From Patescibacteria group bacterium (GTDB lineage Bacteria; Patescibacteriota; Minisyncoccia; Phycocordibacterales; JAKAEA01): a DNA stretch of 64,000 nucleotides. Positions 8,064-44,075 of the stretch are shown here, one piece after another (position 1 is the stretch's first letter; each line of letters starts with the position of its first letter). The translations under genes and the position numbers were made by a program. The DNA is taken from contig JAZKCY010000001.1 of NCBI GenBank assembly GCA_040387855.1, positions 253,857 through 317,856 of the forward strand, given 5' to 3'. The notes under the pieces were generated by a model. That model had not been told where the DNA came from and ran no database searches. It was given only the letters and a program-made list of their open reading frames with translations.

Positions 8064-8189
8064 AAAATATTTAATTATTGGAGTATTAATCATAATTAGT
8101 CTTATTTGGTTCTGGTCTGATTGGATTGGATTAATTATAATAGTTTTGATCTCTTCTCTTACTGGAAATCCTATAAAATTTTAAGTGTT

Positions 8190-9185
8190 ATGCTCAATCC
8201 TCAAGCAAAATTAAATCCAAAAGTATTTGATGGTGATGTAGAACAAGTTCCAATCCGAAAAGGATTTGGTGAAGGGTTATTGAAAGCGGGGGAATTGGAT
8301 CCTCAGGTAGTGGGATTGTGTGCGGATCTTACTGAATCGACTCAGATGCATCTCTTTAAAGAAAAGTTTCCTGCACGATTTGTAGAAATTGGAGTAGCAG
8401 AACAAAACCTAGCCTCTGTGGCCTCAGGAATGGCTGCAATGGGCAAGATTCCTTTTATCACCTCATATGCCATGTTTTCTCCAGGACGTAACTGGGAGCA
8501 AATTAGAACGACTATTGCTTACAATAATGTGCCCGTAAAAATTGCTGGATCACATGCTGGGATTTCTGTGGGACCTGATGGAGGAACACATCAAGCAGTT
8601 GAAGACTTGGCATTAATGCGAGTGATTCCAAGAATGATTGTTCTTTCTCCCTGTGATTTTATTGAAGCTCGAAAGGCAACACTTGCAGCTGCAAAAATTA
8701 AAGATCCTGTATATATTCGATTGGCTCGAGATAAGACTCCGGTTATCACTACTGAAGAAACAGTTTTTGAAATAGGTAAAGCACAAACCGTGTGGCAGCC
8801 AGCTGCAGGAAAAGCTGATGTGGGAATTATTGCTACAGGTGCCTTGGTACATAAAGCATTACTTGCAGCAAAGGAATTGGAGAAAGAAAAAATTGGTGTC
8901 ACCGTAATTAATCTTGCAACTATCAAGCCTCTTGATGAGAAAGCTATAATAAAATTAGCGCAAGACACATGTGCAATTGTAACTGTTGAAGAACATCAAA
9001 TTGCTGGAGGAATGGGATCAGCAGTATCAGAATGTTTAGCAAAAAATAAACCGGTACCACAAGAATTTGTTGGTGTGAAAGATGAATTTGGTCAGTCAGG
9101 AACTCCCGCAGAACTTATCGAACATTATGGAATGGGGCAAAAAGATATTATTGCTGCTGTTAAAAAAGTAATGAAGCGTAAATAA
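8190..9185 (+). CDS. tkt: transketolase, C-terminal (pyrimidine-binding) subunit
   Basis: FVEIGVAEQN motif and C-terminal domain; start reset to ATG 8190 after an N-terminal extension of the ORF. Confidence 0.75.
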   Translation: MLNPQAKLNPKVFDGDVEQVPIRKGFGEGLLKAGELDPQVVGLCADLTESTQMHLFKEKFPARFVEIGVAEQNLASVASGMAAMGKIPFITSYAMFSPGRNWEQIRTTIAYNNVPVKIAGSHAGISVGPDGGTHQAVEDLALMRVIPRMIVLSPCDFIEARKATLAAAKIKDPVYIRLARDKTPVITTEETVFEIGKAQTVWQPAAGKADVGIIATGALVHKALLAAKELEKEKIGVTVINLATIKPLDEKAIIKLAQDTCAIVTVEEHQIAGGMGSAVSECLAKNKPVPQEFVGVKDEFGQSGTPAELIEHYGMGQKDIIAAVKKVMKRK

Positions 9186-9188
9186 TTC

Positions 9189-10064
9189 ATGCAATTCAGT
9201 AACTTTTTTTCAAATACAGTACATGATTCTGAAATAGGTGATGTCTTGAAATATGCTTTTAATGAGCGTCTTGCAGAGGTGCTCATTTTTATTGGAGGGA
9301 CAATGGTGTGGTGGGTATTTGTTGTTACGTTCTTTGGTACGTCAATGATGTTTCTCTACCTTGTCCCATTAGCATTGGCTATCGCTGGCTATTATCTATT
9401 TTATTTGGATAGTAAAGAAGTATTTATTGAGCACTATGCTGCGTCAGAAAATTATACCTATTCAGAATATGGTGAACCGTCACTACTTGAAGGATCTGCA
9501 TTTAAACAAGGTCATAGTCATACTATGAAAAATGTTATTCGAGGACATTTTGAAAATCATGAATTTCAGGTATTCACTTTTACGTATGCTCTAGGAGAGG
9601 GAAAAGAAACATGTTATTACACATCTACAGTTTTTGAACTCGATTTTGAGCATCCTATGCCGCATATGGTGCTTGTATCTCGGTATTTAGAAAATGCCGT
9701 AAATGTGATGGTAGATGGACTGCTGTCGCTTGCATATGTGAGTAAGAGTTTTCCAATGGTAAAATCAGGAAAGTCATATCTTGCATTAGAGGGGGATTTT
9801 CAAAAGTATTTTAATCTTTATATAGATAAAGAACACAGCCAGGAAGTTCTGGAAATATTTTCACCTGATGTTATGGCAGACTTCATTGATTATGGAAAGC
9901 ATTACAGTGTTGAGTTTGTCGACGATAAAATTTATATTTTCTATGGAAGTGAAGTGAATCGACGAAAAGAACTTGATGCATTTTATGCACTTGCGCGGTT
10001 GCTCACATCAAAAATGGCATTTATGTTTTTGAAGAAAAAACCTGATTGGTTGTATGTAAAATAA
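9189..10064 (+). CDS. hypothetical membrane protein (two N-terminal TM helices)
   Basis: ORF with hydrophobic N-terminus; no confident family assignment. Confidence 0.4.
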   Translation: MQFSNFFSNTVHDSEIGDVLKYAFNERLAEVLIFIGGTMVWWVFVVTFFGTSMMFLYLVPLALAIAGYYLFYLDSKEVFIEHYAASENYTYSEYGEPSLLEGSAFKQGHSHTMKNVIRGHFENHEFQVFTFTYALGEGKETCYYTSTVFELDFEHPMPHMVLVSRYLENAVNVMVDGLLSLAYVSKSFPMVKSGKSYLALEGDFQKYFNLYIDKEHSQEVLEIFSPDVMADFIDYGKHYSVEFVDDKIYIFYGSEVNRRKELDAFYALARLLTSKMAFMFLKKKPDWLYVK

Positions 10065-10065
10065 A

Positions 10066-10092
10066 AAATCCTGAGATATCTCAGGGTTTTTT
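10066..10092. terminator. bidirectional rho-independent terminator
   Basis: AAAAAATCCTGAGATATCTCAGGGTTTTTT between convergent genes. Confidence 0.6.
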
Positions 10093-10096
10093 ATTT

Positions 10097-11092
10097 TTAG
10101 ATTTTTGAAACTTTGTATTCTGCCGGAGCTTTTGATAAAAAGTCTTCGAGCTGAGCTTTTGTAAGTAATCCTTCTTGAGCACCAACTTTTTGTACTACTG
10201 ACATAGAATTGATTGGTCCCCATACAAGGGCTTCTTCCAATGTCTTTCCAAGGGCAAGAGCTGATGTGACTGTTGAAGAGAATGCATCACCTGCACCTGT
10301 TCGTTCATATGGCTCATGAGGATACACAGGCATAAACCAGGCATCAGTTCCATCATAGGCATATGCTCCTTCGATTCCATCAGTAACTACAACTATCTTT
10401 GGACCAAGAGCCATCAAGCCTTTCATGAGATTCTTTACATCTCGGTCTGTGACCTTAAGAATTCTTTGTGCTTCTTCTACGTTGCAAAAGAATACATCAG
10501 ATCGTGCATAGATATCTTTGAGTGCTTCAACTCCCATTTTCATTTGGAATGTTCCTGGCTGGAATGCAAGCTTTGTTTCTGGATGTGCTGCGAGATATGC
10601 TGAGATCTGTTTGTGATAATCTGCAGAGTTTTCACCAAGTGAGCTGAGATAAATCCATCGAGGAGCATCTTTAATATTTGGGAACTTGTATGGATATAAT
10701 TCGTGCTTCACGAGAATCGTACGTTCTACACCGTACCAAAGTACATAGTGATAATTGGTAGTAAGATCACCGTGAATACTCATGTAATCTGTTGAAACCC
10801 CGTTTTTATCGAGCTCACCAATACATTCCTTTCCTTGAATATCGCCTCCAACATCAGCCATAAGCACAGAGCGTAATCCAAGTCGGGCCGCAGACACTGC
10901 AGCATTGGCGCTATTTCCCACACCTTTTAAAATAGTTACTGATTCATAAGGAACCTTATCACCAAACGTAATACACAATTCTTTACGTGTGTGATCTATA
11001 CTGTCTTGAATTTCTGCCTGCGTAATTCTAATAAAAGCGTCGGTAACGATATCGCCGATAGCGAGGAAATCGAATGTGTTGTCCATATTCAT
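10097..11092 (-). CDS. PfkB-family carbohydrate kinase (ribokinase-like)
   Basis: N-terminal GDIVTD, C-terminal TGAGDAF anion-hole motif. Confidence 0.7.
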   Translation of the reverse strand: MNMDNTFDFLAIGDIVTDAFIRITQAEIQDSIDHTRKELCITFGDKVPYESVTILKGVGNSANAAVSAARLGLRSVLMADVGGDIQGKECIGELDKNGVSTDYMSIHGDLTTNYHYVLWYGVERTILVKHELYPYKFPNIKDAPRWIYLSSLGENSADYHKQISAYLAAHPETKLAFQPGTFQMKMGVEALKDIYARSDVFFCNVEEAQRILKVTDRDVKNLMKGLMALGPKIVVVTDGIEGAYAYDGTDAWFMPVYPHEPYERTGAGDAFSSTVTSALALGKTLEEALVWGPINSMSVVQKVGAQEGLLTKAQLEDFLSKAPAEYKVSKI

Positions 11093-12617: not shown

Positions 12618-12824
12618 ATGCACACTAAAAAGAATCATTCATCTAAGAATTCTGTTAGTACATCTAGGAAAAAAGATATTATTTCGTTAGTGTGTGTGGT
12701 GGTATGTTTTTGTATATCTGCATTTCTGCTTCTCAACATTAATACACATTCAGAATATGAAGAATTCGTAGAAAAGTATGGGGCAATAGATCAATCAGCT
12801 TTTTCATCATATGTACAAAGATAA
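12618..12824 (+). CDS. small single-pass membrane protein, paralog 2 (C-terminal EFVEKYGAIDQSAFSS)
   Basis: Tandem paralog of the previous ORF. Confidence 0.4.
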   Translation: MHTKKNHSSKNSVSTSRKKDIISLVCVVVCFCISAFLLLNINTHSEYEEFVEKYGAIDQSAFSSYVQR

Positions 12825-13593
12825 AAAAGGTTTTACTCTAATAGAGCTTCTTGTCGTAATTGCAATAATTTCTTTGCTTTCGAGTGTTGTATTTACTGCA
12901 ACTAATGTTGCTCGTGCAAAGGCTCGTGATACACGCAAGCTTGCAGATGCTAATCAGGTGAAAACTGCGCTCAATTCTTTTAATCTTGAAGAAGAAGGAA
13001 TGCCGGGAAATTACAATTGTGATGGGAGCTATTGTTCTGGAGGAGGGGGGACATTTCTTGCTATTGAAGATATCAATAATCCTACAGACCCTCAGACTGC
13101 AAGTGGACAGGCTTACAACAGAAGCATGCAGGATTTAGTAGATGCTGGTGTGCTGGGTGCAATTCCGCATAGTCCTGGGGGAAGTCCGTATGCTTATTAT
13201 AACTATGGAATAACATCACTTGGTGCCGTTTTTGGAACTGAGCTAGAAACAGACACTCGTAGGATACATACTAGAATTGCTGTAGCAACGTTATACAGCA
13301 CAGATATGGAAAGTGGGAGGGAGGTATGTGAGACATACAGTAATAGTGAAGATGCAGGACGAGTGTACTATCTTTATTGTGATGATATTCCAAATAATGA
13401 ATGGTGTAGCCACATCGCAAGTGATCCCGGAAATTATCCTTCTCCTGGCTCGGTAACAAACAATCTTGCATATGTGGGAGAGGGTTGGCCTCAGAGTGAG
13501 TATTGTGTGCCTTTAGCGTACTCATCTGTATCGCCTGCACCCACACTTCTTTGTCAGAATAATGTATTTGAATATTGCATCATAGCCCCGTAG
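12811..13593 (+). CDS. type IV pilin-like protein (prepilin-type N-terminus)
   Basis: KGFTLIELLVVIAIISLL class III signal / N-methylation motif; Cys-rich C-terminal domain. Confidence 0.6.
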   Translation: MYKDKKGFTLIELLVVIAIISLLSSVVFTATNVARAKARDTRKLADANQVKTALNSFNLEEEGMPGNYNCDGSYCSGGGGTFLAIEDINNPTDPQTASGQAYNRSMQDLVDAGVLGAIPHSPGGSPYAYYNYGITSLGAVFGTELETDTRRIHTRIAVATLYSTDMESGREVCETYSNSEDAGRVYYLYCDDIPNNEWCSHIASDPGNYPSPGSVTNNLAYVGEGWPQSEYCVPLAYSSVSPAPTLLCQNNVFEYCIIAP

Positions 13594-26649: not shown

Positions 26650-27210
26650 ATGATTACTATTGGTCTTACGGGCACTATTGGCGCAGGCAAGGGAACGATT
26701 GTCGAGTATTTAAAGACCCAAGGTTTTACACACTATCCCGCTCGGGATTTTTTAATAAGAGAAGTTGTAAAAAGAGGACTCGAACCTATTCGAGAAAATA
26801 TTACTGTAGTGGCAAATGATCTCCGAAAGATCCATTCTCCTGATTATATAATCTCTGAACTTTCAAAAGAGCGAGCAACAAATCCTGGTAATGCAATTAT
26901 TGAATCTATTAGAAATTTAGGGGAGATAGATTATCTTAGAAAGACTATTCCCAATTTTTATTTGTTTGCTGTTGATGCAGATTTGAAACTTCGGTATGAA
27001 CGAATCCTAGAACGGGGATTGAGTACTGATCACATTTCATTTGAGCAGTTTGTGATAGACGAAAATAAAGAGATGGATTCTAAGGAACTCTGGAAACAAA
27101 ATATTCGAGCTTGTATTTCACAGGCAGATTTTGTATTCGAAAATAATGGGACTATTGAAGAACTCTCAGTGAAAGTGGAGGAAGTGCTTAAAAATTTGAC
27201 TAATAAGTAA
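26650..27210 (+). CDS. coaE: P-loop nucleotide kinase, dephospho-CoA kinase-like
   Basis: IGLTGTIGAGKGT Walker A at N-terminus and VDADLKLRYERILERGLS pattern like CoaE; low-GC native composition. Confidence 0.45.
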   Translation: MITIGLTGTIGAGKGTIVEYLKTQGFTHYPARDFLIREVVKRGLEPIRENITVVANDLRKIHSPDYIISELSKERATNPGNAIIESIRNLGEIDYLRKTIPNFYLFAVDADLKLRYERILERGLSTDHISFEQFVIDENKEMDSKELWKQNIRACISQADFVFENNGTIEELSVKVEEVLKNLTNK

Positions 27211-27553
27211 ATCCTCTTAAACTAACCTGAGAACTGGGGGCAGTCCTAACCCGAGGTCCACATGGCAGAATTTGGAGATGAATGGTCTGTGTGCTCGTGT
27301 TCGTGTCACGACCCAAATGGCGGGCCGCCGCGCGCTGACCACTGCATTCCGTGTTGTACTCATTGCCCGTGGTGTGCTCAGAACATCACGGGCAACCTCG
27401 ATGCACACATTGCTGGTGTTCATCCCACACACGTGGGGCAACCCTTTCCTTTCGTCAGTCCCTTAGCGGGGCTTTCCGACCAACCACTGGTCGGGTAGTC
27501 AGCAGGGGATTTTTTTATTACAAAATTTATATAAAAAAAGCCGTTCGCGGGTG

Positions 27554-27967
27554 CTACTTGGCTGGTGTTTTTTCGAAACTTTTTGCAAGGTAAAGTGTGG
27601 TATTGTAGGCAACTTTGAATTGAACATACCACACTTGTCCTACACTCCCGGTGCTATCATCCCGACCTCTCGGATTGAACCACACCTGCCGCACAACATA
27701 TGTGGCATGCTCTTCAGTGAGAGTGATATCGCCGATCTCGGGGGGAATGGGTGTTACAACCGGGCGGACTACATCATCCACCTTGAATGGCGGTTGCAAC
27801 CCAAGGAGCCGAGCGTGTAAGGCTCCGCTTAGCCAGTTCACCATCTTGCGAGTTGCGCGTAACCCGGGCTCTTCACCAAAGGAAGTGGCTCCGGTTCGCT
27901 CTGCAGCACGTACAAGCTCCTGCACAAGCTCGACGTTATCCATCGTGTACGGATCTCTTTTTGACAT
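27554..27967 (-). CDS. 137-aa hypothetical protein in GC-rich micro-island
   Basis: ATG preceded by AAGGAG SD at -7; no family recognised. Confidence 0.4.
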   Translation of the reverse strand: MSKRDPYTMDNVELVQELVRAAERTGATSFGEEPGLRATRKMVNWLSGALHARLLGLQPPFKVDDVVRPVVTPIPPEIGDITLTEEHATYVVRQVWFNPRGRDDSTGSVGQVWYVQFKVAYNTTLYLAKSFEKTPAK

Positions 27968-28062
27968 GCGGTTACTCCTTTTCCATACATTATAGTAGTC
28001 AAAATTGGGTTTGTTGCAAGCTCTAAAATTTGCTATAATAGAGTATCTAAAAATTTACAAAA

Positions 28063-30162
28063 ATGGCTAAATCAGACGAGAAGAAAAAGAAAGAAGGGAG
28101 TTACGGCGCGGAAGATATTCAAGTCCTCGAGGGTCTGGAACCGGTGCGAAAGCGACCGGGTATGTACATTGGTACAACTGGACCCGATGGTCTTCACCAT
28201 CTTATTTGGGAAATCTTCGATAACTCTCGTGACGAAGCCATGGGCGGTCATTGTAATGATATTGAAGTAGCCATTTTGCCTGGTGAGTTTATTCGTGTTG
28301 TCGACAACGGCCGAGGTATTCCCGTAGACAAACATTCAAAAACAAAAGTATCTGCTCTTGAAACTATTATGACCGTGCTTCATGCCGGAGGTAAATTCGG
28401 AGGTGAAGGATACAAAGTATCTGGAGGTCTTCACGGAGTGGGAGCATCGGTAGTAAACGCGCTTTCAAATCACACTCAAGTACGAGTACATCGCGATGGT
28501 GGAGAGCATGTTCAAGAATATGCTAAAGGGAAAATTCTCGCTCCAGTAAAAAAGGTTGGAGCTTCAAAGCTCAACGGAACTATCGTAAAATTTCAACCTG
28601 ACGAAACTATTTTTCAAGAAGTAAAATTTGATTTTCAGCGAGTTGTAAATCATCTTCGACAACAGGCTTACTTGGTTAAGGGCCTAAGAATTACTGTTAT
28701 TGATGCACGAGGTTATGAAGGTAAGATACGTGATGAGGAAGTAGCATATCTCCGTGAATTGGCTCTTGAAGTGCCATCACAGTCGTTCTACTTTGAAGGA
28801 GGACTTATGTCATTGGTGAAGTTCCAAAACACACTCTTCAAACCAGTACATAAAAATATTTTCTACATTGAAAAAAACACAACTGAATATGAAACAGTAG
28901 AAGTATCTCTCCAGTATGTTGACGATATGAGTTCACGTATCCTTCCTTTTGCAAACAATATTTACAACTCAGAAGGAGGAACTCATGTTACAGGATTTAA
29001 GACTGCGCTTACACGTATGCTTAATACCTATGGCCGAAAGAATAATCTCATTAAAGAATCAGAAGAAAACTTTACAGGTGAAGACGTACTTGAAGGTCTC
29101 ACTGCCGTTGTGTCTGTAAAGATTCGAGAAATTCAATTCGAAGGACAAACAAAAGCAAAGCTTGGAACTGTGGAAGCTCGAGGAATGGTTGAATCTGTGT
29201 TTAGTGAGGCATTTGAATTCTTCCTTGAAGAAAATCCAGACGATGCACGAGCTATCATTCAGAAAGTTATTCTTGCTCTTCGAGCACGAAAAGCTGCGAA
29301 GGCTGCAAAGGATTCTATTTTGCGAAAGGGAGCTCTTGAAGGATTTGGTCTTCCAGGAAAACTTAAGGATTGCCAAAGCAAAGATGCTACAGAATCAGAA
29401 CTCTTCATTGTGGAGGGAGACTCAGCGGGTGGTACAGCTACACAAGGACGAGATCGAAAGACTCAGGCTATCTTGCCGTTGAAAGGAAAAGTGCTCAACG
29501 TGGAACGAGCTCGCCTCGATAAGATTTTGGCATTTGCCGAAATCAAATACTTGGTTATTGCGCTGGGAACTGCGATTGGTGATACTTTCGATATTTCACG
29601 ACTACGTTATCACAAGATTATTATTGCAACGGATGCGGACGTCGACGGTGCTCACATTCGAACATTGTTGCTAACCCTTTTCTTCCGATACTTCCGACCA
29701 CTTATTGATGCGGGCAATATCTACATCGCACAACCACCACTCTTTAAGATTAAACGAGGAAAGCAGATTGAGTATGCATACTCACTCGAAGAACGAGATC
29801 ATATTATTAAAAATGTGTTTGGATACAAGGGAGAAGTAGAAGAAATTATCCAGACAGAACACAACACTCCATCAGAAGAAGTTTTTGTTACCGAAGCCGT
29901 ATCTGATGAACAGCTCGATGAAGAACGAGAAGTGAAAAAGAAAGGAAAGCCTGATGTACAACGATACAAGGGTCTTGGAGAAATGAACGCCGAAGAGTTG
30001 TGGGAAACAACAATGGATCCAACTCGACGAGTGCTTAAGCGAGTAGAAGTGGGAGATGCTACTGAAGCTGATAAAGTCTTCGATATCTTGATGGGTACAG
30101 ATGTGCCATCACGAAAGAGTTTCATCCAGTCGAATGCGCAGAAAGCGAATATCGATATTTAA
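28063..30162 (+). CDS. gyrB: DNA gyrase subunit B
   Basis: GHKL ATPase N-domain, TOPRIM (EGDSAGG) and C-terminal tail; 699 aa. Confidence 0.9.
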   Translation: MAKSDEKKKKEGSYGAEDIQVLEGLEPVRKRPGMYIGTTGPDGLHHLIWEIFDNSRDEAMGGHCNDIEVAILPGEFIRVVDNGRGIPVDKHSKTKVSALETIMTVLHAGGKFGGEGYKVSGGLHGVGASVVNALSNHTQVRVHRDGGEHVQEYAKGKILAPVKKVGASKLNGTIVKFQPDETIFQEVKFDFQRVVNHLRQQAYLVKGLRITVIDARGYEGKIRDEEVAYLRELALEVPSQSFYFEGGLMSLVKFQNTLFKPVHKNIFYIEKNTTEYETVEVSLQYVDDMSSRILPFANNIYNSEGGTHVTGFKTALTRMLNTYGRKNNLIKESEENFTGEDVLEGLTAVVSVKIREIQFEGQTKAKLGTVEARGMVESVFSEAFEFFLEENPDDARAIIQKVILALRARKAAKAAKDSILRKGALEGFGLPGKLKDCQSKDATESELFIVEGDSAGGTATQGRDRKTQAILPLKGKVLNVERARLDKILAFAEIKYLVIALGTAIGDTFDISRLRYHKIIIATDADVDGAHIRTLLLTLFFRYFRPLIDAGNIYIAQPPLFKIKRGKQIEYAYSLEERDHIIKNVFGYKGEVEEIIQTEHNTPSEEVFVTEAVSDEQLDEEREVKKKGKPDVQRYKGLGEMNAEELWETTMDPTRRVLKRVEVGDATEADKVFDILMGTDVPSRKSFIQSNAQKANIDI

Positions 30163-30185
30163 TAAGTCTAAATATCAAGCAAAAC

Positions 30186-30215
30186 AAAACCCCGCAGAGA
30201 TGCGGGGTTTTGTTT
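30186..30215. terminator. bidirectional rho-independent terminator
   Basis: AAAACCCCGCAGAGATGCGGGGTTTTGTTTT between gyrB and convergent gene. Confidence 0.6.
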
Positions 30216-30228
30216 TAGTTTAATTCAA

Positions 30229-31767
30229 TTAGTATCGGTAGATAGTAGTTGACGTTGTATTGTTGTTGTTATTTGTCTCAGCAACTTCGTTGTTGTAATC
30301 AACAGTCACACTTACTGGGTTATTACCCTGTGAGCGAATATTGTCGAAACCAACAGTGAAGATTGTCTTCTGACCAGGATTAAGTGATGGCTGGTATCCA
30401 GAAGTATAGAGTGAGTTTGAATCGTTTGTTGGTAGGTATGCTTGGAATCGGTATTGTCCACTAGCAGTTCCACCTACGTTTTCAATTTCAAACTTGATAG
30501 CTGCTCGATCGTTGTATCCAACATTGTTTGTTGCATAGAACTGATTTGTATTTTTATCTACAATTCCAGTACTAACGATTCGAACAATTAGATCTGCCTG
30601 AGTTCCATAATTGCCCCCTACAGTTCCACCGTTGTTTACGATGTTTGTAGTTGCAACGTTATTGTTGTTATTTGTTTCAGCAATAAGGTTCTGAGGGTCT
30701 ACTGTAATAGTTACAGTATTGTTTTGAGCATTGTTGATTGGTTCAAAACCAAGAACATATTCAATTCGATCCTGTGGTCCAAGATTCTGTTGACCGTATG
30801 CATTGTATACAGAGTTCTTTGGAGTTGGAAGATTTGCTGTGAATGCCCATGTTCCAGAATTCTTATCACCATTGTTCTTAACAGTAAACTTTACTGCAGG
30901 TCGCATACCAGCACTTACAGAATATGATGGAACGAATGCTGAAGTTGTTGGATGGAGGTATCCTACTGCATTGATAGTAATTGCTAAGTCTGCAGTTCCA
31001 TTTGGATTTGATTGGATATATGCAGGAGTAACTGCTGGTTTAGTTGGAGTAGGCTTAGGTGTTGGAGTAGGTGTTGGCTTTGGAGTTACTGGAGCAGGGG
31101 TTGGTTCTGGTGTAGATGCTGGAGGTGTAACTGGTTGTTCACCTGAAGGCATATCAATAGGTGTTCCACCTGTTCGACTGTCTGCAATGTTTGGATTTGT
31201 AACTGTTACTAGGACACTATCAAGATCAATTACATCTGAAGTGTTGTTTTCAAGAAATGCGAGTGTGAAAGATATGTCAGTATATCGCTGAACCTCAGAA
31301 AATGCAGTGAGATCAATTCGATTATCGTTTACTGAGAAATAGTAGAGACTATTACATGTAATAGTTTCATTTGGAATACTAATTGATGTTTCAATTCGTA
31401 CACCATCTTTACACTGGTAGCTTAATACATATGAACCATTATCTCGATGTTTTCCAGTCCATGAAAGAGTGAAAGGTTCACCTGAGTTGATTGTAGTTCG
31501 ATCGGCAGTTAAGTCTACAGTCTGGTTCGTTCCAAAGAGGGAAGAAAGAGTATTCTTAAATGATGATACCGCGTTTGGTACCAATTTGATTGGTAATAAA
31601 ATACCAATAATGAGAAGGACGATAAGTCCAATTAGCACGACTATTTTTAGTACGGTGCTTGGTTCTCGCTTTTGTTCCGGGGTTTTGTTATTTTGGGTTT
31701 GCATTTCCATAAGCCTTTTATTAATGAATGGTGTTGGTATATTATCATATATATAGTCATTTGTCAA
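30229..31767 (-). CDS. N-terminally membrane-anchored surface protein with PT-rich linker and two CARDB-like domains
   Basis: Signal-anchor TM, TPEPTPAPVTPKPTPTPTPKPT linker, two ~110-aa repeats each ending DxxNxIAETNNNNN (CARDB-like). Confidence 0.55.
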   Translation of the reverse strand: MTNDYIYDNIPTPFINKRLMEMQTQNNKTPEQKREPSTVLKIVVLIGLIVLLIIGILLPIKLVPNAVSSFKNTLSSLFGTNQTVDLTADRTTINSGEPFTLSWTGKHRDNGSYVLSYQCKDGVRIETSISIPNETITCNSLYYFSVNDNRIDLTAFSEVQRYTDISFTLAFLENNTSDVIDLDSVLVTVTNPNIADSRTGGTPIDMPSGEQPVTPPASTPEPTPAPVTPKPTPTPTPKPTPTKPAVTPAYIQSNPNGTADLAITINAVGYLHPTTSAFVPSYSVSAGMRPAVKFTVKNNGDKNSGTWAFTANLPTPKNSVYNAYGQQNLGPQDRIEYVLGFEPINNAQNNTVTITVDPQNLIAETNNNNNVATTNIVNNGGTVGGNYGTQADLIVRIVSTGIVDKNTNQFYATNNVGYNDRAAIKFEIENVGGTASGQYRFQAYLPTNDSNSLYTSGYQPSLNPGQKTIFTVGFDNIRSQGNNPVSVTVDYNNEVAETNNNNNTTSTTIYRY

Positions 31768-31857
31768 ATACTAGTGTGTAATTAAAACTAGGGTTGCTAT
31801 TGACTTTTGATCAAATATGTGATAATCTTGTGGTATCTATAGTATATAAATTTCTCT

Positions 31858-32637
31858 ATGAGTCAAGTATTACCACCACAAAAAAATATTGGATTCCTCG
31901 ACATAATTTGGCATTTTAAGCTGCGTCTAGCAGCCTACATTTTGGTTATCTCTTTTTTAACATTCATTGGACTCTATCTCTTTGGTGGTGTTCCTGAGGA
32001 ATTGCGAGTACTTACTACTACAGAAGAATCCCCAATTGAAGCCGTAGAAGAGGCACCACGACAATATGTACAACTCCGAAACCGTCCTCAATTTGATGAT
32101 TCTGTACCTCTACCTAAGCCTACTCCAGTAACTCCTGCAAAGACTACAACGACAAAGCCAACAGCTGCTAAACCTGTTGCAAATACTACCGTGGCTACAC
32201 CAAAGGGTGCTTTACCGACTTATATTTCTATTAGTAAAATTGGTGTAAGCACTGCAGTAGTGAATCCAACTTCAACTAACAACGATGTATTAAACCAAAA
32301 CCTTCTAAAAGGTGCTGTTCGATACCCAGGATCTGGAACACTAGAGCAGGGGAATATGTTTATTATGGGCCATAGTTCTGGTCTTAAAGTTGTGAATAAT
32401 AAGGCATATAAAGCATTTAACGGCTTAAAAAACCTTTCTTTTGGTGACTCTATTGTAGTAACTTCAGGCGGTAAAACAGCGGTATATGCTGTTAGTTCAG
32501 TATCTCTTGTTGATAGTGATGAAGGCTTTGTTAATTTAAAGACTAATACTCACATGCTTACCCTCGTAACATGTAATGTTTTTGGAGAAAAAGAAGAGCG
32601 ATTTCTCGTTGAGGCGACCTTCGTGAAATTCCAGTAA
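31858..32637 (+). CDS. sortase-family transpeptidase (membrane-anchored)
   Basis: N-terminal TM, PT-rich linker, catalytic His (FIMGHSSG), Cys (TLVTCNVFG) and Arg (EERFLVEA) in sortase order. Confidence 0.65.
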   Translation: MSQVLPPQKNIGFLDIIWHFKLRLAAYILVISFLTFIGLYLFGGVPEELRVLTTTEESPIEAVEEAPRQYVQLRNRPQFDDSVPLPKPTPVTPAKTTTTKPTAAKPVANTTVATPKGALPTYISISKIGVSTAVVNPTSTNNDVLNQNLLKGAVRYPGSGTLEQGNMFIMGHSSGLKVVNNKAYKAFNGLKNLSFGDSIVVTSGGKTAVYAVSSVSLVDSDEGFVNLKTNTHMLTLVTCNVFGEKEERFLVEATFVKFQ

Positions 32638-32798
32638 TTACCCGTTTCGTAAATACTATGTAATACCTATTGACTTTTGTAAAGTTAGGTGATATAATAC
32701 AACACAGTAGATTGACATTAGGCCATATTTGTTTAATTTTACAAATATGGCAGAGTTATCTGCTTTTTTGTTTGAATTTATAAATAGTATTAAATCGT

Positions 32799-35795
32799 AT
32801 GATGAAAAAAATATCCCTCATACTTGGAGCTATCGTTATCCTCTCAGGCCTCGCCTTTGTTGGGTATTCAGTCGTTTCAGGAAACAATCTAATGATTGCT
32901 GATGCTACAGGTTGTACATCAAATCCTGAAGCCGACCTAACCGGTACTATTCAAGGAAATAAAGTAACAATTACCAACAAATCAGCTACATGTAGCTATA
33001 AGGTTGGTCTTGCTTCATATAAAGTATTCTCAAGTACTTTTAGTGATCAAAAATTATTTGATTCAGCAAGTGCAACAATCGCACCAAAGGCAACTATTAC
33101 ATTAACAGTTGACCTTCCTTCATGTGCATATCAATTAGATGCATTTTATGGAGATGTGATCACTAACTTATCAAATGAAAACATGTATCGAACTCGATTG
33201 CTCGATTATGTTGATCATTTCGTAAACTATTGTACTAATGTTCCACCAAAGGGATGTATTACAATTTCAAAGGAAGTCTATGAATCAAATGGAACTACAC
33301 GAGTTTTAGATGAATCAGGATTTACTTTCAAGCTCGTACAGACTGGTGCACAGATGACAACTGGTACTGATGGAACTGTTACATTTAGTAACGTTGCACA
33401 AGGAAACTATGTTGTAGAAGAACTTGCACGAAATGGATATACCGTAATGTTCCCAACAGATGGAACAGCAGATATCACAGTTAACAAGCCAACAAGTGAA
33501 GGCTGTGCACAGTTCAAATTCAAAAACAAAAAAGTAGTAACTCAAACTCCTAAAGGATGTATCGTAATTAAAAAAGAAACTTACAACACTGTAGGAAATA
33601 TCCTTACACCTGTTGCACAGTTCACATTCAAACTCGACAATAGTCAGACCGTACAAAACGATGCAAATGGTAATGCACGATTTGATAATGTGTCAGTTGG
33701 ATCTCACACTGTTTCTGAAATCGTACCTACTGGATGGACAAACATTCTCGTAACTCCTGCAAACGGAGTAGTAAATGTAGAAGCTGGTTCAGACTGTGTT
33801 GGTGTTGTATTCAAAAACAAGCAGAACCCAGTAGTTGCTCAGAAAGGATGTATCGTAGTAAACAAAGAAGTCTATGAATCAAATGGAACTACACGAGTTT
33901 CAGATGAATCAGGATTTACTTTCAAGCTCGTACAGACTGGAGCTCAGCTCACAACAAACTCAAATGGATCAGTTACCTTTAGTAACATTGCATTTGGAAA
34001 CTATGTTGTAGAAGAACTTGCACGAAATGGATACACCGTAATGTTCCCAACTGATGGAACATATGATGTAACCGTTAATAAAGCTACATCAGAAGGCTGT
34101 GCAAACATTACCTTCAAGAATAAGAAGAATGAAGTTGTAACTCCAAAGGGATGTATCGTAGTTACAAAAGAATTGTACCAGTCAAATGGTTCAACTCGAA
34201 TCAACGATGCTTCTGGTTTTACCTTCAAGCTTGTTCAGACAGGTGCACAGATGACAACAAACTCAAACGGAACAGTTACATTTAGTAACCTTAACTACGG
34301 CAACTATGTTGTAGAAGAGCTATCACGAAGTGGATACGTTGTGATGTCACCTTCAGATCGGACTCACGATGTAAATGTAAACAGTCAAAACTGTGAACAG
34401 ATTACCTTCAAGAACAAACTCGTTGAAGTGCCTCCACAGAAAGGATGTATCGTAATTAAGAAAGAAGCATTCGATACGAATGGTAATCTTATGAACACCG
34501 TTGCTCAGTTTACCTTCCGATTGGATGGTGGACGAACAACAGTAAACGATGCTCAGGGTAATGCGTACTTCTATGATGTTTCAGTTGGATCACACACAGT
34601 GACTGAAGAAGGTATCAACGGATGGACCAACTTCCTCGTAACTCCAGCTAATGGAAACGTACAAGTATCACATGGTACAAATTGTGCTGGTGTTGTATTC
34701 AAGAATAAACAGAATCCACCAGTTCAAACACCAAATCTTTCAGGAGTATGTTGGGTAAATCCTTCAACTGCTCAGATCAACCAGACAGTTACATGGTCAG
34801 CATCAGCATCTGGAGGAAACGGATCATACACCTACTCATGGAGTGGATGGGATGGTCTCTCAGGATACGGAAGTTCAGTACAGAAACAATACTCATATGC
34901 AGGACAGAAATCTGGAACAGTAGTTATTACTTCAGGTAACGATTCAATTACAAAGACATGTTACATGGAAGTAATTCAGCCACAGGTTCAGAATTTCTAT
35001 GGGTACTGTACTGCAAACCCAACTTCAGCATATGTTAATGAGACTATTAATTGGTCATCATCAGCAACTGGAGGAAACGGAAACTACTCATACTCATGGA
35101 CTGGAACTGATGGACTCTCATCAAACAACCAGAACGTATCACGATCATACGGAACTCCTGGACAGAAAACCGCTACAGTAACTATTTACTCAAACGGTCA
35201 GCAGGTAAGTCAGACATGTACTATCTACATCAATGAACGACCTGGAACTGTTGTAGTTTCAACAGAAACTCCAAATCAGGGAAGTGGTGTGTATCTAAGT
35301 CAGATTCCTTACACAGGAACTGGAGACAACTTCAAGTTGGGACTCTTCGTATTCGGACTTATCGCATGGAGTGGAGCAGTATCATACTTCCTCATTGCAC
35401 GAAAAGCACGAAAGCAAGGTCTAACAGTTGCTGAACTTATCAACGGATCACGATCTACCTATGCGTTTGCTTCTGGAGTATCTGCACCTATTGCAGCTAC
35501 CTACGTAGCAGAACCAGTAGTTGCTGAACCAGTTGCAATCCCTTCACCAACTCAGACACTTGTATCAGATGAATTCCTCTTTGATCTTGAACAAAAAGCT
35601 CGATCAATGAATATGATCATCTCAGCAGATGCCTTCCGAGTACTTGCAGTGTATACAGGACGAAATACAGAACACGCACATGCATTAATTGAAGAACTAG
35701 CAGTTATGTATCGAACAGATCTTGCTGATAGTAGTGATTGGATAACTCTTGGTATGGATAAAGTAACAAAAGTTATTTCACACGTTCAGGCATAA
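32799..35795 (+). CDS. large cell-surface adhesin: signal peptide, five Cna-B-like repeats, two PKD-like repeats, TM anchor and ~150-aa cytoplasmic tail
   Basis: Repeats of ~100 aa starting KGCIV and containing GNYVVEE/ GSHTV motifs; YSWSGWDGLSG PKD-like motif x2; IPYTGTG followed by TM and ARKARK. Confidence 0.6.
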   Translation: MMKKISLILGAIVILSGLAFVGYSVVSGNNLMIADATGCTSNPEADLTGTIQGNKVTITNKSATCSYKVGLASYKVFSSTFSDQKLFDSASATIAPKATITLTVDLPSCAYQLDAFYGDVITNLSNENMYRTRLLDYVDHFVNYCTNVPPKGCITISKEVYESNGTTRVLDESGFTFKLVQTGAQMTTGTDGTVTFSNVAQGNYVVEELARNGYTVMFPTDGTADITVNKPTSEGCAQFKFKNKKVVTQTPKGCIVIKKETYNTVGNILTPVAQFTFKLDNSQTVQNDANGNARFDNVSVGSHTVSEIVPTGWTNILVTPANGVVNVEAGSDCVGVVFKNKQNPVVAQKGCIVVNKEVYESNGTTRVSDESGFTFKLVQTGAQLTTNSNGSVTFSNIAFGNYVVEELARNGYTVMFPTDGTYDVTVNKATSEGCANITFKNKKNEVVTPKGCIVVTKELYQSNGSTRINDASGFTFKLVQTGAQMTTNSNGTVTFSNLNYGNYVVEELSRSGYVVMSPSDRTHDVNVNSQNCEQITFKNKLVEVPPQKGCIVIKKEAFDTNGNLMNTVAQFTFRLDGGRTTVNDAQGNAYFYDVSVGSHTVTEEGINGWTNFLVTPANGNVQVSHGTNCAGVVFKNKQNPPVQTPNLSGVCWVNPSTAQINQTVTWSASASGGNGSYTYSWSGWDGLSGYGSSVQKQYSYAGQKSGTVVITSGNDSITKTCYMEVIQPQVQNFYGYCTANPTSAYVNETINWSSSATGGNGNYSYSWTGTDGLSSNNQNVSRSYGTPGQKTATVTIYSNGQQVSQTCTIYINERPGTVVVSTETPNQGSGVYLSQIPYTGTGDNFKLGLFVFGLIAWSGAVSYFLIARKARKQGLTVAELINGSRSTYAFASGVSAPIAATYVAEPVVAEPVAIPSPTQTLVSDEFLFDLEQKARSMNMIISADAFRVLAVYTGRNTEHAHALIEELAVMYRTDLADSSDWITLGMDKVTKVISHVQA

Positions 35796-35834
35796 ACAAT
35801 AAACAAATGTATTGTGAGTCGGCCACGACTAAAC

Positions 35835-35862
35835 AAAACCCGCTGTAATGGCGGGTTTTGTG
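35835..35862. terminator. bidirectional rho-independent terminator
   Basis: AAAACCCGCTGTAATGGCGGGTTTTGTG between convergent genes. Confidence 0.55.
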
Positions 35863-38295: not shown

Positions 38296-39852
38296 ATGAG
38301 CAAAGGTATTGAACAATCTGGAATAAAACAAGTTGAATCCTCTGAACAACAAGCTCTGCGAGCATTAGCTGCTAAATTAAAAATGGACGTTGCGAGATAT
38401 TTTGACGAAGCTGGTATTAAAGATCGAGACGAAGGAAAAATTATTGATGCCGAGGCGTGTGAAAGATTAGCTGCTCAGTCGAGAGAAGAAGCTGAAGCTA
38501 TATTAGCTGGAGGACCATTTGATGAGGACCTTGTACGTCCTTTGGCAGAACGATCTGATCTGGATGATGGATTACCGCTGCCTCCTGCACCTACAGGTAG
38601 TCTTCTCATGGATCATTCTCAGGAGCCTTTACCAAGAGGTGACCAAGCTAAAGATCAATTACGTACACCAACGCTTGATACTACTTTGAATAATGATCCT
38701 GCTTTTGCTGTTGGTGGGGTAAATAGTGATTCTAAGTTTCCTGGATTAGATGCTGAAACAATTTACAATCCTGATGGATCAGTTACTTTTGTTGTAGAAA
38801 ATAAATCATTAAAACCAGGAGATGAACCTCGTTCTGCAGGTCCAATGATAGTTACCAGAAAACCTGATGGGTCTACTTCTAGTACAATGAAAGATACTAC
38901 TCCTGTGCCAGAAGCCTTAGGAAAAAACATTCCTCAGTTCACTTCTAAAGGAGAACCCAATCTAGCTTACGATGACAAAGATTTCGATGAAAACGGCCGT
39001 ATACGTTCAAGTAAAGTGAATAAGCCAGGTGTCGCAGAAAGTCGTAAGGCTAATCCAAATGACACAACATATGCGCCGAATAAAAAAGGGAAGTTGGCAT
39101 TTGAAGGAGATGCAAATCCTATGGAGGCGACATGGGTTGATGGAAAGCCTGTAAACAAAGGTGAGCTGGCTTTTGAGGGGGATCCAAGTGTAGATCCAAT
39201 AGCTCAGACTGTTGCTGGAGCATATATCAATGTTGAGGAATCAAGACGACAAGCTCACATTGAAAAAGTTCGAAGTAGTTTAAAGCAAAAGCCAAAGAAT
39301 GAGGAGCTTGGAAAAGTATTAGATAGAGTTGTACCAGAGCAACGACCACAACTTACGAAAGCAGAACAAGCCGCAATCCTCGCAAAGAATCGAGAGAAAA
39401 TGATTAAAGAGGTTCCACAAAGAATTAGCGTAATGAATAAACGTGCTGATTATATTCTTCATTTTAGAGATATAGTTCTAAACGCTGATCCAGAACTTAC
39501 TTATGGAAGACGAAAGATTTTGTATAATGTCATTATTGATTTAGCAAAATCTCAAAAAAATGGTTTGTCTGAAAAAGAAAAAGACACACTTCATGAACAA
39601 GCAAGCAGAATATCGCTATTTGATCCAAACGAAAATCCAAAAGCGATTCCTCAGTTCAGAGCTGATTGTGAAAAATTTGCGATGTACTACAAACATTTAG
39701 TAGAGAAACAAGCACAAAAGGTTTTTCCAGCTAGTACTCCAATCCAACCTTTCAAACAAAAAATTGTGGAAAAGTTTGGACCTCAACCAAAGCTTGGATG
39801 GTCTAATATCAAGAATAAAGTAAGGTCTTTCTTTGGGTTTAAGAGATACTAA
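38296..39852 (+). CDS. 518-aa hydrophilic orphan protein (no signal peptide, no recognisable domain)
   Basis: Long ORF, acidic N-terminal region, KG-rich middle, alpha-helical C-terminal part. Confidence 0.4.
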   Translation: MSKGIEQSGIKQVESSEQQALRALAAKLKMDVARYFDEAGIKDRDEGKIIDAEACERLAAQSREEAEAILAGGPFDEDLVRPLAERSDLDDGLPLPPAPTGSLLMDHSQEPLPRGDQAKDQLRTPTLDTTLNNDPAFAVGGVNSDSKFPGLDAETIYNPDGSVTFVVENKSLKPGDEPRSAGPMIVTRKPDGSTSSTMKDTTPVPEALGKNIPQFTSKGEPNLAYDDKDFDENGRIRSSKVNKPGVAESRKANPNDTTYAPNKKGKLAFEGDANPMEATWVDGKPVNKGELAFEGDPSVDPIAQTVAGAYINVEESRRQAHIEKVRSSLKQKPKNEELGKVLDRVVPEQRPQLTKAEQAAILAKNREKMIKEVPQRISVMNKRADYILHFRDIVLNADPELTYGRRKILYNVIIDLAKSQKNGLSEKEKDTLHEQASRISLFDPNENPKAIPQFRADCEKFAMYYKHLVEKQAQKVFPASTPIQPFKQKIVEKFGPQPKLGWSNIKNKVRSFFGFKRY

Positions 39853-43556: not shown

Positions 43557-44075
43557 ATGAAAAGAATTAATCTACGTTCAGAAAAAGGTTTTACTGTAAT
43601 AGAGCTCATCGTTGTTTTTGCTATTATCGGATTATTAAGTTCATTTGTTCTAACGACTACTTCAACAGCACGTTTTAATGCTCGATCAGCACAGCGATTA
43701 GCAGATCTGGGTCAAATTCATGTTGCACTAGAACTCTATTATGATGAACATCAATCATATCCACCCTCAAGCGGTTGGAATGGTATTTATTCTTGTTGGG
43801 GATACGCATCAACAGATAGTAATGCTAATGGGTGGATTTCTCAGTTAGTCCCAAGGTATATCTACAAGTTACCTCGTGATCCACGCAATCATATTAACTG
43901 TGACGCTCAGTATATCTATAGTTCTAATACTGTTGATTACAAATTGATAGCTCACAATCCAGAAAATTGTATGGGTGAAACAAGACGCAATCTTCCACTA
44001 CGAGATCCAACCCGAGGAGGGAACAATGGCTGTTGGGCATTTGGGTATTGGACTCCTGGTGCTGTAAGTTGGTAG
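43557..44075 (+). CDS. type IV pilin-like protein
   Basis: KGFTVIELIVVFAIIGLL prepilin N-terminus. Confidence 0.6.
   Translation: MKRINLRSEKGFTVIELIVVFAIIGLLSSFVLTTTSTARFNARSAQRLADLGQIHVALELYYDEHQSYPPSSGWNGIYSCWGYASTDSNANGWISQLVPRYIYKLPRDPRNHINCDAQYIYSSNTVDYKLIAHNPENCMGETRRNLPLRDPTRGGNNGCWAFGYWTPGAVSW

Follow-up and report, generated by a model that had tools for sequence, protein, structure and literature searches.

A probable sortase-substrate anchoring cassette with an extended PYTG sorting signal in Parcubacteria-type Patescibacteria

Three adjacent genes encode a sortase and two surface proteins

A membrane-anchored sortase and two large surface proteins are encoded side by side in a 64-kb stretch of DNA from a member of the Patescibacteria (contig JAZKCY010000001.1); the whole of this stretch is referred to below as the window. 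The three open reading frames (ORFs) that a first-pass annotation of the DNA had placed within 30229-35795 were all recovered there and are named genes A, B and C. In that annotation the sortase gene was divergently flanked by both surface-protein genes. Gene A is indeed divergent from the sortase gene, but gene C is co-directional with it and lies downstream. The annotation had also suggested a reduced-genome lineage, in agreement with the Patescibacteria, as the product of gene B is 100% identical to the NCBI entry 'MAG: sortase [Patescibacteria group bacterium]'. The genes, with lengths in amino acids (aa) and the transmembrane (TM) helix of the sortase, are as follows.

30229-31767, minus strand: gene A, N-terminally anchored CARDB-family protein (512-aa ORF; Pfam CARDB, 2 stretches)
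31858-32637, plus strand: gene B, membrane-anchored sortase of 259 aa (TM helix aa 19-47, low-complexity linker, catalytic domain aa 123-254)
32371-32601, plus strand: catalytic residues of the sortase, His172 (32371-32373), Cys239 (32572-32574) and Arg248 (32599-32601)
32799-35795, plus strand: gene C, 998-aa surface protein and presumed sortase substrate (Pfam SpaA, SdrD_B and PKD_4)

Gene C carries an extended PYTG sorting signal

The presumed sorting signal of gene C consists of a motif, a TM helix and a basic cluster.

35289-35318, plus strand: sorting motif VYLSQ-IPYTG, aa 831-840, with the predicted cut between Thr839 and Gly840
35337-35414, plus strand: TM helix aa 847-867 (F...L..WS....Y) and stop-transfer sequence ARKARK aa 867-872 (hydropathy; family conservation)

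The pentapeptide IPYTG occupies aa 836-840, and the TM helix starts 7 residues after it. It belongs to the single PYTG-type signal found across the whole window, and the candidate sortase substrate peptides predicted around it are VYLSQIPYTGTGD and GVYLSQIPYTGTGDN. When the C-terminal 182 aa of gene C were used as the query, a word-indexed protein search returned nothing at E<=1e-3; exhaustive HMMER searching with 184 C-terminal aa yielded 163 cluster representatives, and among the best 150 of them [VILMT]P.TG was followed by a hydrophobic helix in 149. The pentapeptides were VPYTG (85), IPYTG (34), [VIL]PATG (14) and LPYTG (10), and the family consensus was (V)(Y/F)LSQ[VIL]PYTG..N.K..F...L..WS....Y...[KR][KR]. 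Conservation was counted in 147 aligned signals, gathered by similarity to the signal and drawn from clusters that share <50% identity, with positions given relative to the first pentapeptide residue.

Upstream of the pentapeptide: V at -5, 93%; Y/F at -4, 82%; L at -3, 100%; S at -2, 79%; Q at -1, 69%
Within the pentapeptide: P at +1, T at +3 and G at +4, 100% each; Y at +2, 88%
Downstream: K at +10, 72%; F at +14, 87%; Y at +27, 74%
Inside the helix: W at +21, 88%; S at +22, 88%
Basic cluster: K or R at +31, 64%, and at +32, 89%

LPYTG is the annotated motif of the Streptococcus agalactiae beta antigen (PMC4457541), which places the [VIL]PYTG pentapeptide within the known LPXTG range. The first-pass annotation had noted the absence of a canonical LPXTG. 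This is correct in that IPYTG is not canonical, but the pentapeptide is LPXTG-like and lies inside a conserved, lineage-specific and sortase-linked signal. The number of residues that follow TG defines three classes of protein, with tails of 32-40 residues (the canonical length), ~50-72 residues (signal plus a cytoplasmic motif) and 105-393 residues. That the same signal is present on proteins with short tails of 32-40 residues is our best argument that PYTG is a genuine sorting signal.

The signal was also used on its own in a motif-only scan, in which back-translated [YF]L[SN]Q[VI]PYTG was searched in one genome per species (185,579 species). The scan gave 159 confirmed relatives, and 80 loci were kept. 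The lineages named for these 80 loci were Taylorbacteria, Giovannonibacteria, Campbellbacteria and Paceibacterota, all of the Parcubacteria group, while the others were labelled generically as 'Saccharibacteria' or 'bacterium'; the sole non-Patescibacteria label belonged to a 2-kb contig binned as Bacteroidia. Linkage to a sortase was counted in those 58 loci that offered 1.5 kb or more of sequence 5' of the gene with the signal. A sortase gene lay no more than 300 bp upstream and on the same strand in 30/58, at 301-2500 bp in 10/58 and at >2.5 kb in 1/58. Of these 58 loci, all chosen by the signal alone, 40 therefore have a sortase at a distance of 2.5 kb or less, compared with a chance expectation of ~0.5%, which is a rough estimate of ours for a single-copy sortase in a 1-Mb genome. 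At least nine assemblies gave two motif loci each, suggesting that a genome encodes several substrates, of which typically one lies beside the sortase.

Gene B is a sortase not assigned to a described class

Gene B matched the Pfam Sortase family (PF04203) with 71.8 bits, against a cut-off of 26.6. His172 (in GHS), Cys239 (in TLVTC) and Arg248 aligned with the catalytic triad of class A and class C sortases of solved structure, and each was conserved in at least 90% of 111 gene B relatives. The first-pass reading of a sortase with a His/Cys/Arg triad in that order is thus borne out by the motif alignment, in which the triad falls into place, and by its conservation among the relatives.

Among the NCBIfam class models, class C scored best, with 41 bits against a cut-off of 160, and classes D, E, F and GN gave 23-35 bits against 140-166. 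The generic sortase model TIGR01076 reached 38.2 (cut-off 39.35). Class C was also the class of the top PDB match. The DP[WFY] lid motif was absent from gene B in a simple pattern test. Since the class models score far below their cut-offs and the class C lid is missing, gene B is best described as an unclassified, lineage-specific sortase.

The ectodomain of gene C is a stalk of Ig-like domains with a distinct head

Upstream of the sorting signal, gene C consists of the following parts.

32799-32885, plus strand: signal peptide/N-terminal hydrophobic segment, aa 1-29, after MMKK (hydropathy)
32886-33242, plus strand: head domain, aa 30-148, with four Cys; lineage-specific and conserved in many PYTG proteins
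33243-34727, plus strand: five SpaA/CnaB-type repeats, aa 149-643, in the order a-b-a-a-b (Pfam SpaA; repeat alignment)
34728-35243, plus strand: two PKD domains, aa 644-815, with a Cys pair each (Pfam PKD_4, 2 stretches; alignment)

NCBI names the gene C product 'SpaA isopeptide-forming pilin-related protein', and Pfam SpaA (PF17802) matched it in 4 stretches (1.4e-27; 96.1 bits, cut-off 23.1). The repeats start with KGCI at aa 151, 252, 349, 450 and 548 and contain two Cys each. In the repeat alignment a first-strand Lys (KGCIxxxKE), the E-box-like element VxE..GY and a last-strand Asn (FKNK) are kept in all five, and one Cys of each pair lies beside the Lys strand and the other beside the Asn strand. 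The best PDB sequence matches of the repeats were the pilins and adhesins 3phs, 3kpt (BcpA) and 4oq1, plus a SpaA-like protein, and in a sequence alignment of repeat 3 with the pilin 3phs the E-box and the terminal N-K-K coincided. Judged from these residues, the repeats are predicted to contain both isopeptide and disulfide bonds. According to one report, MdbA-like oxidoreductases and VKOR, which serve pilin disulfide formation in Actinobacteria, are enriched in genomes of the candidate phyla radiation (CPR) (PMC6744442), and this enrichment is consistent with disulfide-stapled surface domains. The repeats are visible in the DNA as five copies spaced 291-303 nt and two PKD copies at 258 nt; Tandem Repeats Finder detected no DNA tandem array in gene C, as the copies are too diverged.

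The head domain (~120 aa) gave no Pfam or NCBIfam match at E<=10. Its pattern, ..TN.S..CSYKVGLASYK...Q.LFDS....P..T..L.V..P.C..Q.D.FYG, is widespread in Patescibacteria, and in some proteins the domain is duplicated or preceded by PKD or FN3 domains.

The first-pass annotation had described the signal peptide, five Cna-B repeats, two PKD repeats, IPYTG, TM helix and ARKARK correctly, and the immunoglobulin (Ig)-like identity of the repeats stands, as they are SpaA/CnaB-type both by Pfam and by their pilin and adhesin sequence matches in the PDB. The 120-aa head domain had been missed, and gene C does not end at ARKARK, as had been implied, since 126 more residues (873-998) follow.

A protein of this kind might instead be the subunit of a sortase-assembled pilus. 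In that case a class C-like polymerase would join gene C head-to-tail via Lys, as in SpaA or RrgB, and gene A would serve as base or accessory protein. The pilin-related name and the Pfam SpaA match of gene C would fit such a pilus, as would the rank of class C as both best NCBIfam class and top PDB match of gene B; gene C also scored 33 bits with the NCBIfam SpaH/EbpB major pilin model, far below the cut-off of 95. In addition, IPxTG and VPxTG are typical pilin motifs (IPQTG in RrgB, VPDTG in RrgC). However, the 41 bits for class C fall well short of 160, and the simple pattern test found neither [YFV][PA]K (YPK-type) in genes A or C nor DP[WFY] in the sortase. There is one sortase and one signal-bearing protein per cassette, here and in relatives, and gene A has no sorting signal. 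With 998 aa and seven tandem Ig-like domains, gene C has a MSCRAMM-type stalk, unlike a pilin of 2-4 domains. The weak class C score and the lack of a lid in the sortase and of a YPK-type motif in genes A and C make anchoring likelier than polymerisation, and we consider a pilus very unlikely.

A conserved cytoplasmic domain follows the sorting signal

The most unusual feature of the locus is the conserved domain in the cytoplasmic tail of gene C, which we call D1; its fold was modelled with AlphaFold2 (AF2).

35415-35552, plus strand: cytoplasmic linker, aa 873-918, with the motif QGLTVAEL and ..FAS/G.. (tail comparison)
35553-35792, plus strand: tail domain D1, aa 919-998 (~80 aa), alpha-beta-alpha-alpha-beta-alpha fold (AF2)

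An iterative search within the collected sequences placed D1 in more than 100 PYTG proteins. A single-pass phmmer search linked the D1 of the window directly to tails with ~117 further residues, a second domain named D2; gene C and its closest relatives have D1 only, without D2. In the fetched loci neither D1 nor D2 was ever found on an ORF lacking the motif, and 12 of 13 D1-bearing proteins in the motif loci were encoded beside a sortase. Two loci (L072 and L074) have D2 directly after the TM helix without D1, so that D1 and D2 appear to be separable modules. The juxtamembrane motif G[LMI][TS]V.[EQ][LFM], then ..FAG.. (35415-35470 in the window), is kept even in D1-less tails of ~50-62 residues, and could be a linear docking motif.

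We considered whether the tail is an artefact of gene fusion or frameshift. This was ruled out because the in-frame architecture recurs, with linkers that vary, in more than 100 proteins. In one sortase-linked locus (L005, 8100-10975) the substrate is split into overlapping ORFs, 8100-9932 with the head and 9779-10975 with the signal and D1+D2; this split is a frameshift or sequencing error.

The AF2 model of the window D1 had a mean pLDDT of 77 from 19 sequences. A model of the D1+D2 tail of the homologue P0271 reached a pLDDT of 85, and its top 50 PDB fold matches were all clamp-loader subunits (E. coli gamma/tau, delta and delta', B. subtilis delta, and RFC), with E-values of 1.8e-5 to 8e-3. 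The alignments covered 190-212 columns; for the delta subunit 1jqj_C the TMq was 0.58 and the root-mean-square deviation 4.7 A. This aligned length fits what we take to be domain II (lid) plus domain III (collar) of clamp loaders. Weak Pfam DNA_pol3_gamma3 (domain III) matches were seen in 4 of 12 tails (best E 0.0033), and one of the 12 gave a weak DNA_pol3_delta_C match. Pfam and NCBIfam searches of the C-terminal module of gene C at E<=10 returned nothing except a weak holA match, located in D1 (E 0.14, profile positions 135-176), and when D1 and D1+D2 were used in profile searches of PDB sequences, designed repeat proteins were the only matches, with non-significant E-values. The tail of gene C has no P-loop/AAA+ domain I; D1 is preceded by the TM helix and a low-complexity linker. 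From the models, D1 resembles the lid of AAA+ proteins and clamp loaders and D2 the collar, as a resemblance of fold and not as membership of the family.

The tail brings up a second explanation, namely that gene C is an uncleaved type I membrane protein, PYTG being a juxtamembrane element and the ectodomain being coupled through the TM helix to D1 (and D2). Such a protein could be a receptor, a tether between envelope and cytoplasm or a clustering device, and the sortase would have other proteins as its targets, or would only regulate gene C. The conservation of the cytoplasmic domains and their restriction to PYTG proteins in the loci would be expected of such a protein, as would a gene C tail far longer than that of any classical substrate; the conserved W, S, F and Y in the helix and the conserved juxtamembrane cytoplasmic motif would be needless in a disposable signal. 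On the other hand, the identical extended signal is present on proteins with short canonical tails, the D1-bearing proteins are the most tightly sortase-linked (12/13), and P, T and G are invariant, as expected of a scissile site. We therefore regard an uncleaved gene C as unlikely.

Gene A is a co-inherited CARDB partner of the sortase and its presumed substrate

Gene A has a single hydrophobic segment, near aa 34-70, and consists of the following parts.

31582-31653, minus strand: TM anchor and conserved juxtamembrane motif LLPIKLVPNA (hydropathy; nearly invariant in close relatives)
31156-31557, minus strand: Cys-containing ectodomain, aa ~71-204 (~130 aa), conserved in 32 loci
31018-31155, minus strand: Pro/Thr-rich stalk (52% P+T over aa 201-260)
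30238-30999, minus strand: two CARDB domains, aa ~257-377 and ~388-510 (Pfam; internal alignment)

Pfam CARDB (PF07705) matched gene A in 2 copies (E 4.5e-17; 62.6 bits, cut-off 22.7), and AETNNNNN closes each copy, at aa 363 and 496. Hydropathy, composition, Pfam and the internal alignment agree with the first-pass description of an N-terminal anchor, a PT-rich stalk and two CARDB-like domains with AETNNNNN. The domains were named rightly, but the conserved ~130-aa ectodomain before the stalk had been missed. No Pfam match was found for aa 1-146 at E<=10. The TTG start at 31767 falls on the -35 hexamer of a promoter-like site on the minus strand (TTGACA-17-TAATAT), and the ATG at 31710 (Met20) is therefore the likelier start (31710-31767). 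A C-terminal sorting signal was looked for in gene A and none is present, suggesting that gene A is not a usual sortase substrate. A homologue of its N-terminal part was present, divergently upstream of the sortase gene, in 27 of the 40 motif-selected loci with a sortase nearby. By sequence and gene position, gene A is a co-inherited envelope partner.

The cassette lies among housekeeping genes in conserved order

Long contigs of relatives whose sortases are 47-52% identical to gene B were compared with the window. The order pheT, small kinase, gyrB, CARDB protein (minus), sortase (plus), large surface protein (plus), thrS (minus) and dnaE (minus) recurs in them, and with sortases this diverged the arrangement is not due to chance. 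The downstream surface proteins of these syntenic relatives have 605-1090 aa, and their stalks vary (SpaA, SpaA_2, PKD, FN3-like); the head domain and the C-terminal module are retained. The neighbours of the cassette are core genes (pheST, gyrB, thrS, dnaE and rpoBC), and the rest of the window is mostly housekeeping, including rpoB, rpoC, dnaG, SMC, RNase R, glycolysis and pentose-phosphate enzymes and ribosomal proteins. The housekeeping surroundings and conserved synteny suggest that the cassette is a stable feature of the core genome and not an island.

Promoter-like sites were found in the divergent A/B spacer and, as a stronger one, in the B/C spacer, and two terminator-like hairpins bracket the cassette.

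32670-32698, plus strand: promoter-like site in the sortase-substrate spacer, TTGACT-17-TATAAT with TG (extended -10); 11/12 consensus matches, from a consensus scan only
30181-30216, both strands: bidirectional terminator-like hairpin between gyrB and gene A (16-17 bp stem, T run on both strands)
35833-35861, plus strand: terminator-like hairpin 3' of gene C (13-bp stem, 6 GC pairs, T-rich tail)

The setting of the cassette bears on its purpose. The two surface proteins could form a structural coat, with wall-anchored gene C fibrils over a membrane-anchored CARDB layer that would serve integrity, spacing or protection. This is compatible with the sorting of gene C by gene B and differs in purpose only. 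A coat would suit a cassette that lies among core housekeeping genes with conserved synteny and not in a variable island, and whose head domain and gene A ectodomain are conserved and not hypervariable; attachment could then be left to the type IV pilin-like genes in the window as alternative devices. Against a coat, relatives differ strongly in how many stalk domains they have and of which types (605-1090 aa), as is typical of adhesins, and SpaA/CnaB, PKD and CARDB domains occur most often in adhesins. We consider a structural coat a realistic alternative, though less likely than not.

The first-pass annotation had proposed a host-attachment apparatus. Exported and anchored multidomain Ig-like proteins in a Patescibacteria lineage agree with this proposal, and host attachment, as read from the types of domain, is a plausible candidate role of the cassette. 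Two further proteins in the window (12811-13593 and 43557-44075) carry a prokaryotic N-terminal methylation motif and are type IV pilin-like, suggesting a second, independent candidate attachment device. Type IV pili are the attachment device usually invoked for Patescibacteria.

Other observations concern the surroundings of the cassette. The gap between the small kinase gene and gyrB (27217-28026) has 48% GC, compared with ~38% elsewhere in the window, and contains overlapping short ORFs only, the longest of which (27554-27967, minus strand) encodes 137 aa. A search of 27150-28080 gave nothing credible in Rfam at permissive thresholds, and the segment may hold a small gene, either foreign or rapidly evolving, or else an RNA not yet described. 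Between thrS and dnaE, 38296-39852 encodes a 518-aa acidic low-complexity protein without a Pfam match, in place of which the relatives L001, L003 and L004 have other small genes. On two Joint Genome Institute (JGI) contigs of one relative, gyrB is present as 4 or 5 separate fragments (L001, 2478-5412; L002, 2328-5065), called as HATPase_c, DNA_gyraseB, Toprim and GyraseB_C; these are probably assembly or frameshift errors and not biology.

A model for sortase-dependent anchoring of gene C

Collectively, these results suggest that the locus is probably a dedicated, chromosomally fixed sortase-substrate anchoring cassette of Parcubacteria-type Patescibacteria. Gene C would leave the cytoplasm by the Sec pathway, with its C-terminal helix retaining it in the membrane. 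Gene B would recognise VYLSQ-IPYTG, form a thioester at Thr839 and cut between Thr839 and Gly840, and the ~810-aa ectodomain would be transferred to an amine acceptor, most likely a peptidoglycan precursor. A lytic transglycosylase gene within the window suggests that a peptidoglycan wall is present. The product would be a covalently anchored, rod-like fibril with, from the wall outward, two PKD domains, five SpaA/CnaB repeats and the head domain, which at the tip would be the candidate binding module. The remnant of the cut would go beyond the textbook scheme, since it would consist of a Gly840-initiated TM helix and the 126-aa cytoplasmic tail with D1. This tail may act before cleavage, by positioning or clustering the precursor, or after it, as a cytoplasmic record of surface display. 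A further possibility is that the CARDB partner, gene A, and not peptidoglycan, is the putative amine acceptor.

Several observations weigh against the anchoring cassette. Gene B falls below every NCBIfam cut-off for classes A-F and GN, and the C-terminal 184 aa of gene C have no curated LPXTG-anchor match (Pfam Gram_pos_anchor, NCBIfam) even at E<=10. The 158 residues that follow TG in gene C compare with ~30-40 in usual sortase substrates, and 17 of the 58 motif loci had no sortase in the fetched flanks. The conservation figures are partly circular, because the sequences were gathered by similarity to the signal, although the invariance of the aligned signal across clusters that are <50% identical is striking despite this circularity. 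Regarding the tail, the fold matches of the window D1 were weak (RuvBL1/2 (AAA+), E 0.02-0.3, TMq ~0.6), and the clamp-loader match comes from the homologue P0271 and not from gene C itself. Finally, the conservation of the cytoplasmic domain means that full-length gene C could be the functional form.

The anchoring cassette could also be extended to a 'two-sided' class of sortase substrate, defined by PYTG with D1 (and D2), in which one cut would both anchor the adhesin and release or reorganise a cytoplasmic module derived from a lid and collar. The collar of clamp loaders is an oligomerisation domain, and the module could oligomerise in a collar-like manner to cluster precursors, or report display or host contact. 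We put this forward as speculation that is improbable as it stands.

Comparison with known sorting systems

The closest general likeness is to the housekeeping sortases of Gram-positive bacteria and their MSCRAMM substrates, such as SdrD, Cna and the S. agalactiae beta antigen. Both have a membrane-anchored Cys transpeptidase with His-Cys-Arg and substrates with a signal peptide, tandem CnaB/SdrD-B-like Ig domains, [L/I/V]PxTG, a hydrophobic helix and a basic cluster. In contrast to those systems, the sortase described here lies below the class cut-offs, the extended signal shows much stronger conservation than LPXTG signals do, gene C adds a 126-aa tail with a folded domain, and enzyme, substrate and a conserved third gene stand side by side. 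Sortase pili (SpaA, RrgB, BcpA and group B Streptococcus pilins) share with gene C the E-box, the Lys/Asn signature, the pilin PDB matches and an IPxTG-type motif. Unlike them, the cassette has no pilin motif, lid, second pilin or second sortase, and gene C is ~3x the length of a typical pilin. A link between disulfide-containing pilin domains and MdbA/VKOR oxidative folding has been noted for CPR genomes (PMC6744442). The Pam pilus of a CPR preprint was set aside as a different system, based on donor-strand exchange.

Dedicated sorting systems, known from the work of D. Haft, include exosortase/PEP-CTERM, archaeosortase/PGF-CTERM, rhombosortase/GlyGly-CTERM and the class B, D, E and GN sortases with their own motifs. 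The cassette resembles PEP-CTERM-type systems in its tripartite signal of motif, TM helix and basic residues confined to one lineage, in the co-located enzyme and in the several substrates per genome. It differs in that the enzyme is a true sortase and the signal has no NCBIfam or Pfam model. We know of no PEP-CTERM-type dedicated system whose substrates run into conserved cytoplasmic domains.

A precedent for a functional remnant is the Streptococcus gordonii 'C-pep', a membrane remnant of sortase cleavage that is sensed by the SGO_1180 two-component kinase (PMC11326707). The remnant in S. gordonii is only the signal of ~30 aa, whereas the remnant predicted for gene C contains a folded domain of ~80 aa, and of ~190 aa in relatives. 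With the clamp-loader subunits (DnaX gamma/tau, HolA delta, HolB delta' and RFC), the P0271 tail shares the fold of lid II plus collar III. PYTG tails differ from these subunits in that they lack ATPase domain I, show no significant similarity in sequence and are fused to a transmembrane surface protein.

Significance for the surface biology of Patescibacteria

Sortases in CPR and SpaA-like proteins are already known, and NCBI annotates genes B and C as such. Sortases are common in CPR/Patescibacteria (PMC6744442). In the literature searched, we found no description of Patescibacteria sortase substrates or of their signal, of PYTG, VPYTG or IPYTG with a sortase, or of LPXTG in Parcubacteria. 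The extended PYTG signal, the three-gene cassette with a CARDB partner and the D1 and D2 domains behind the signal appear to be undescribed.

Patescibacteria may form a large share of bacterial diversity, and their cultivated members live attached to other microbes. To our knowledge, what has been learned of their surface biology comes almost entirely from type IV pili and one recently described donor-strand pilus. The PYTG signal and the three-gene cassette provide a searchable signature of a sortase-dependent surface proteome in Parcubacteria-type lineages, and the head domain can be named as a candidate tip domain for binding. If the tail serves only for anchoring, the locus would still be useful as an ordinary, lineage-specific variant of LPXTG sorting. 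The clamp-loader-like cytoplasmic domains behind the sorting signal raise the question of whether sortase processing at the surface may be coupled to the cell interior.

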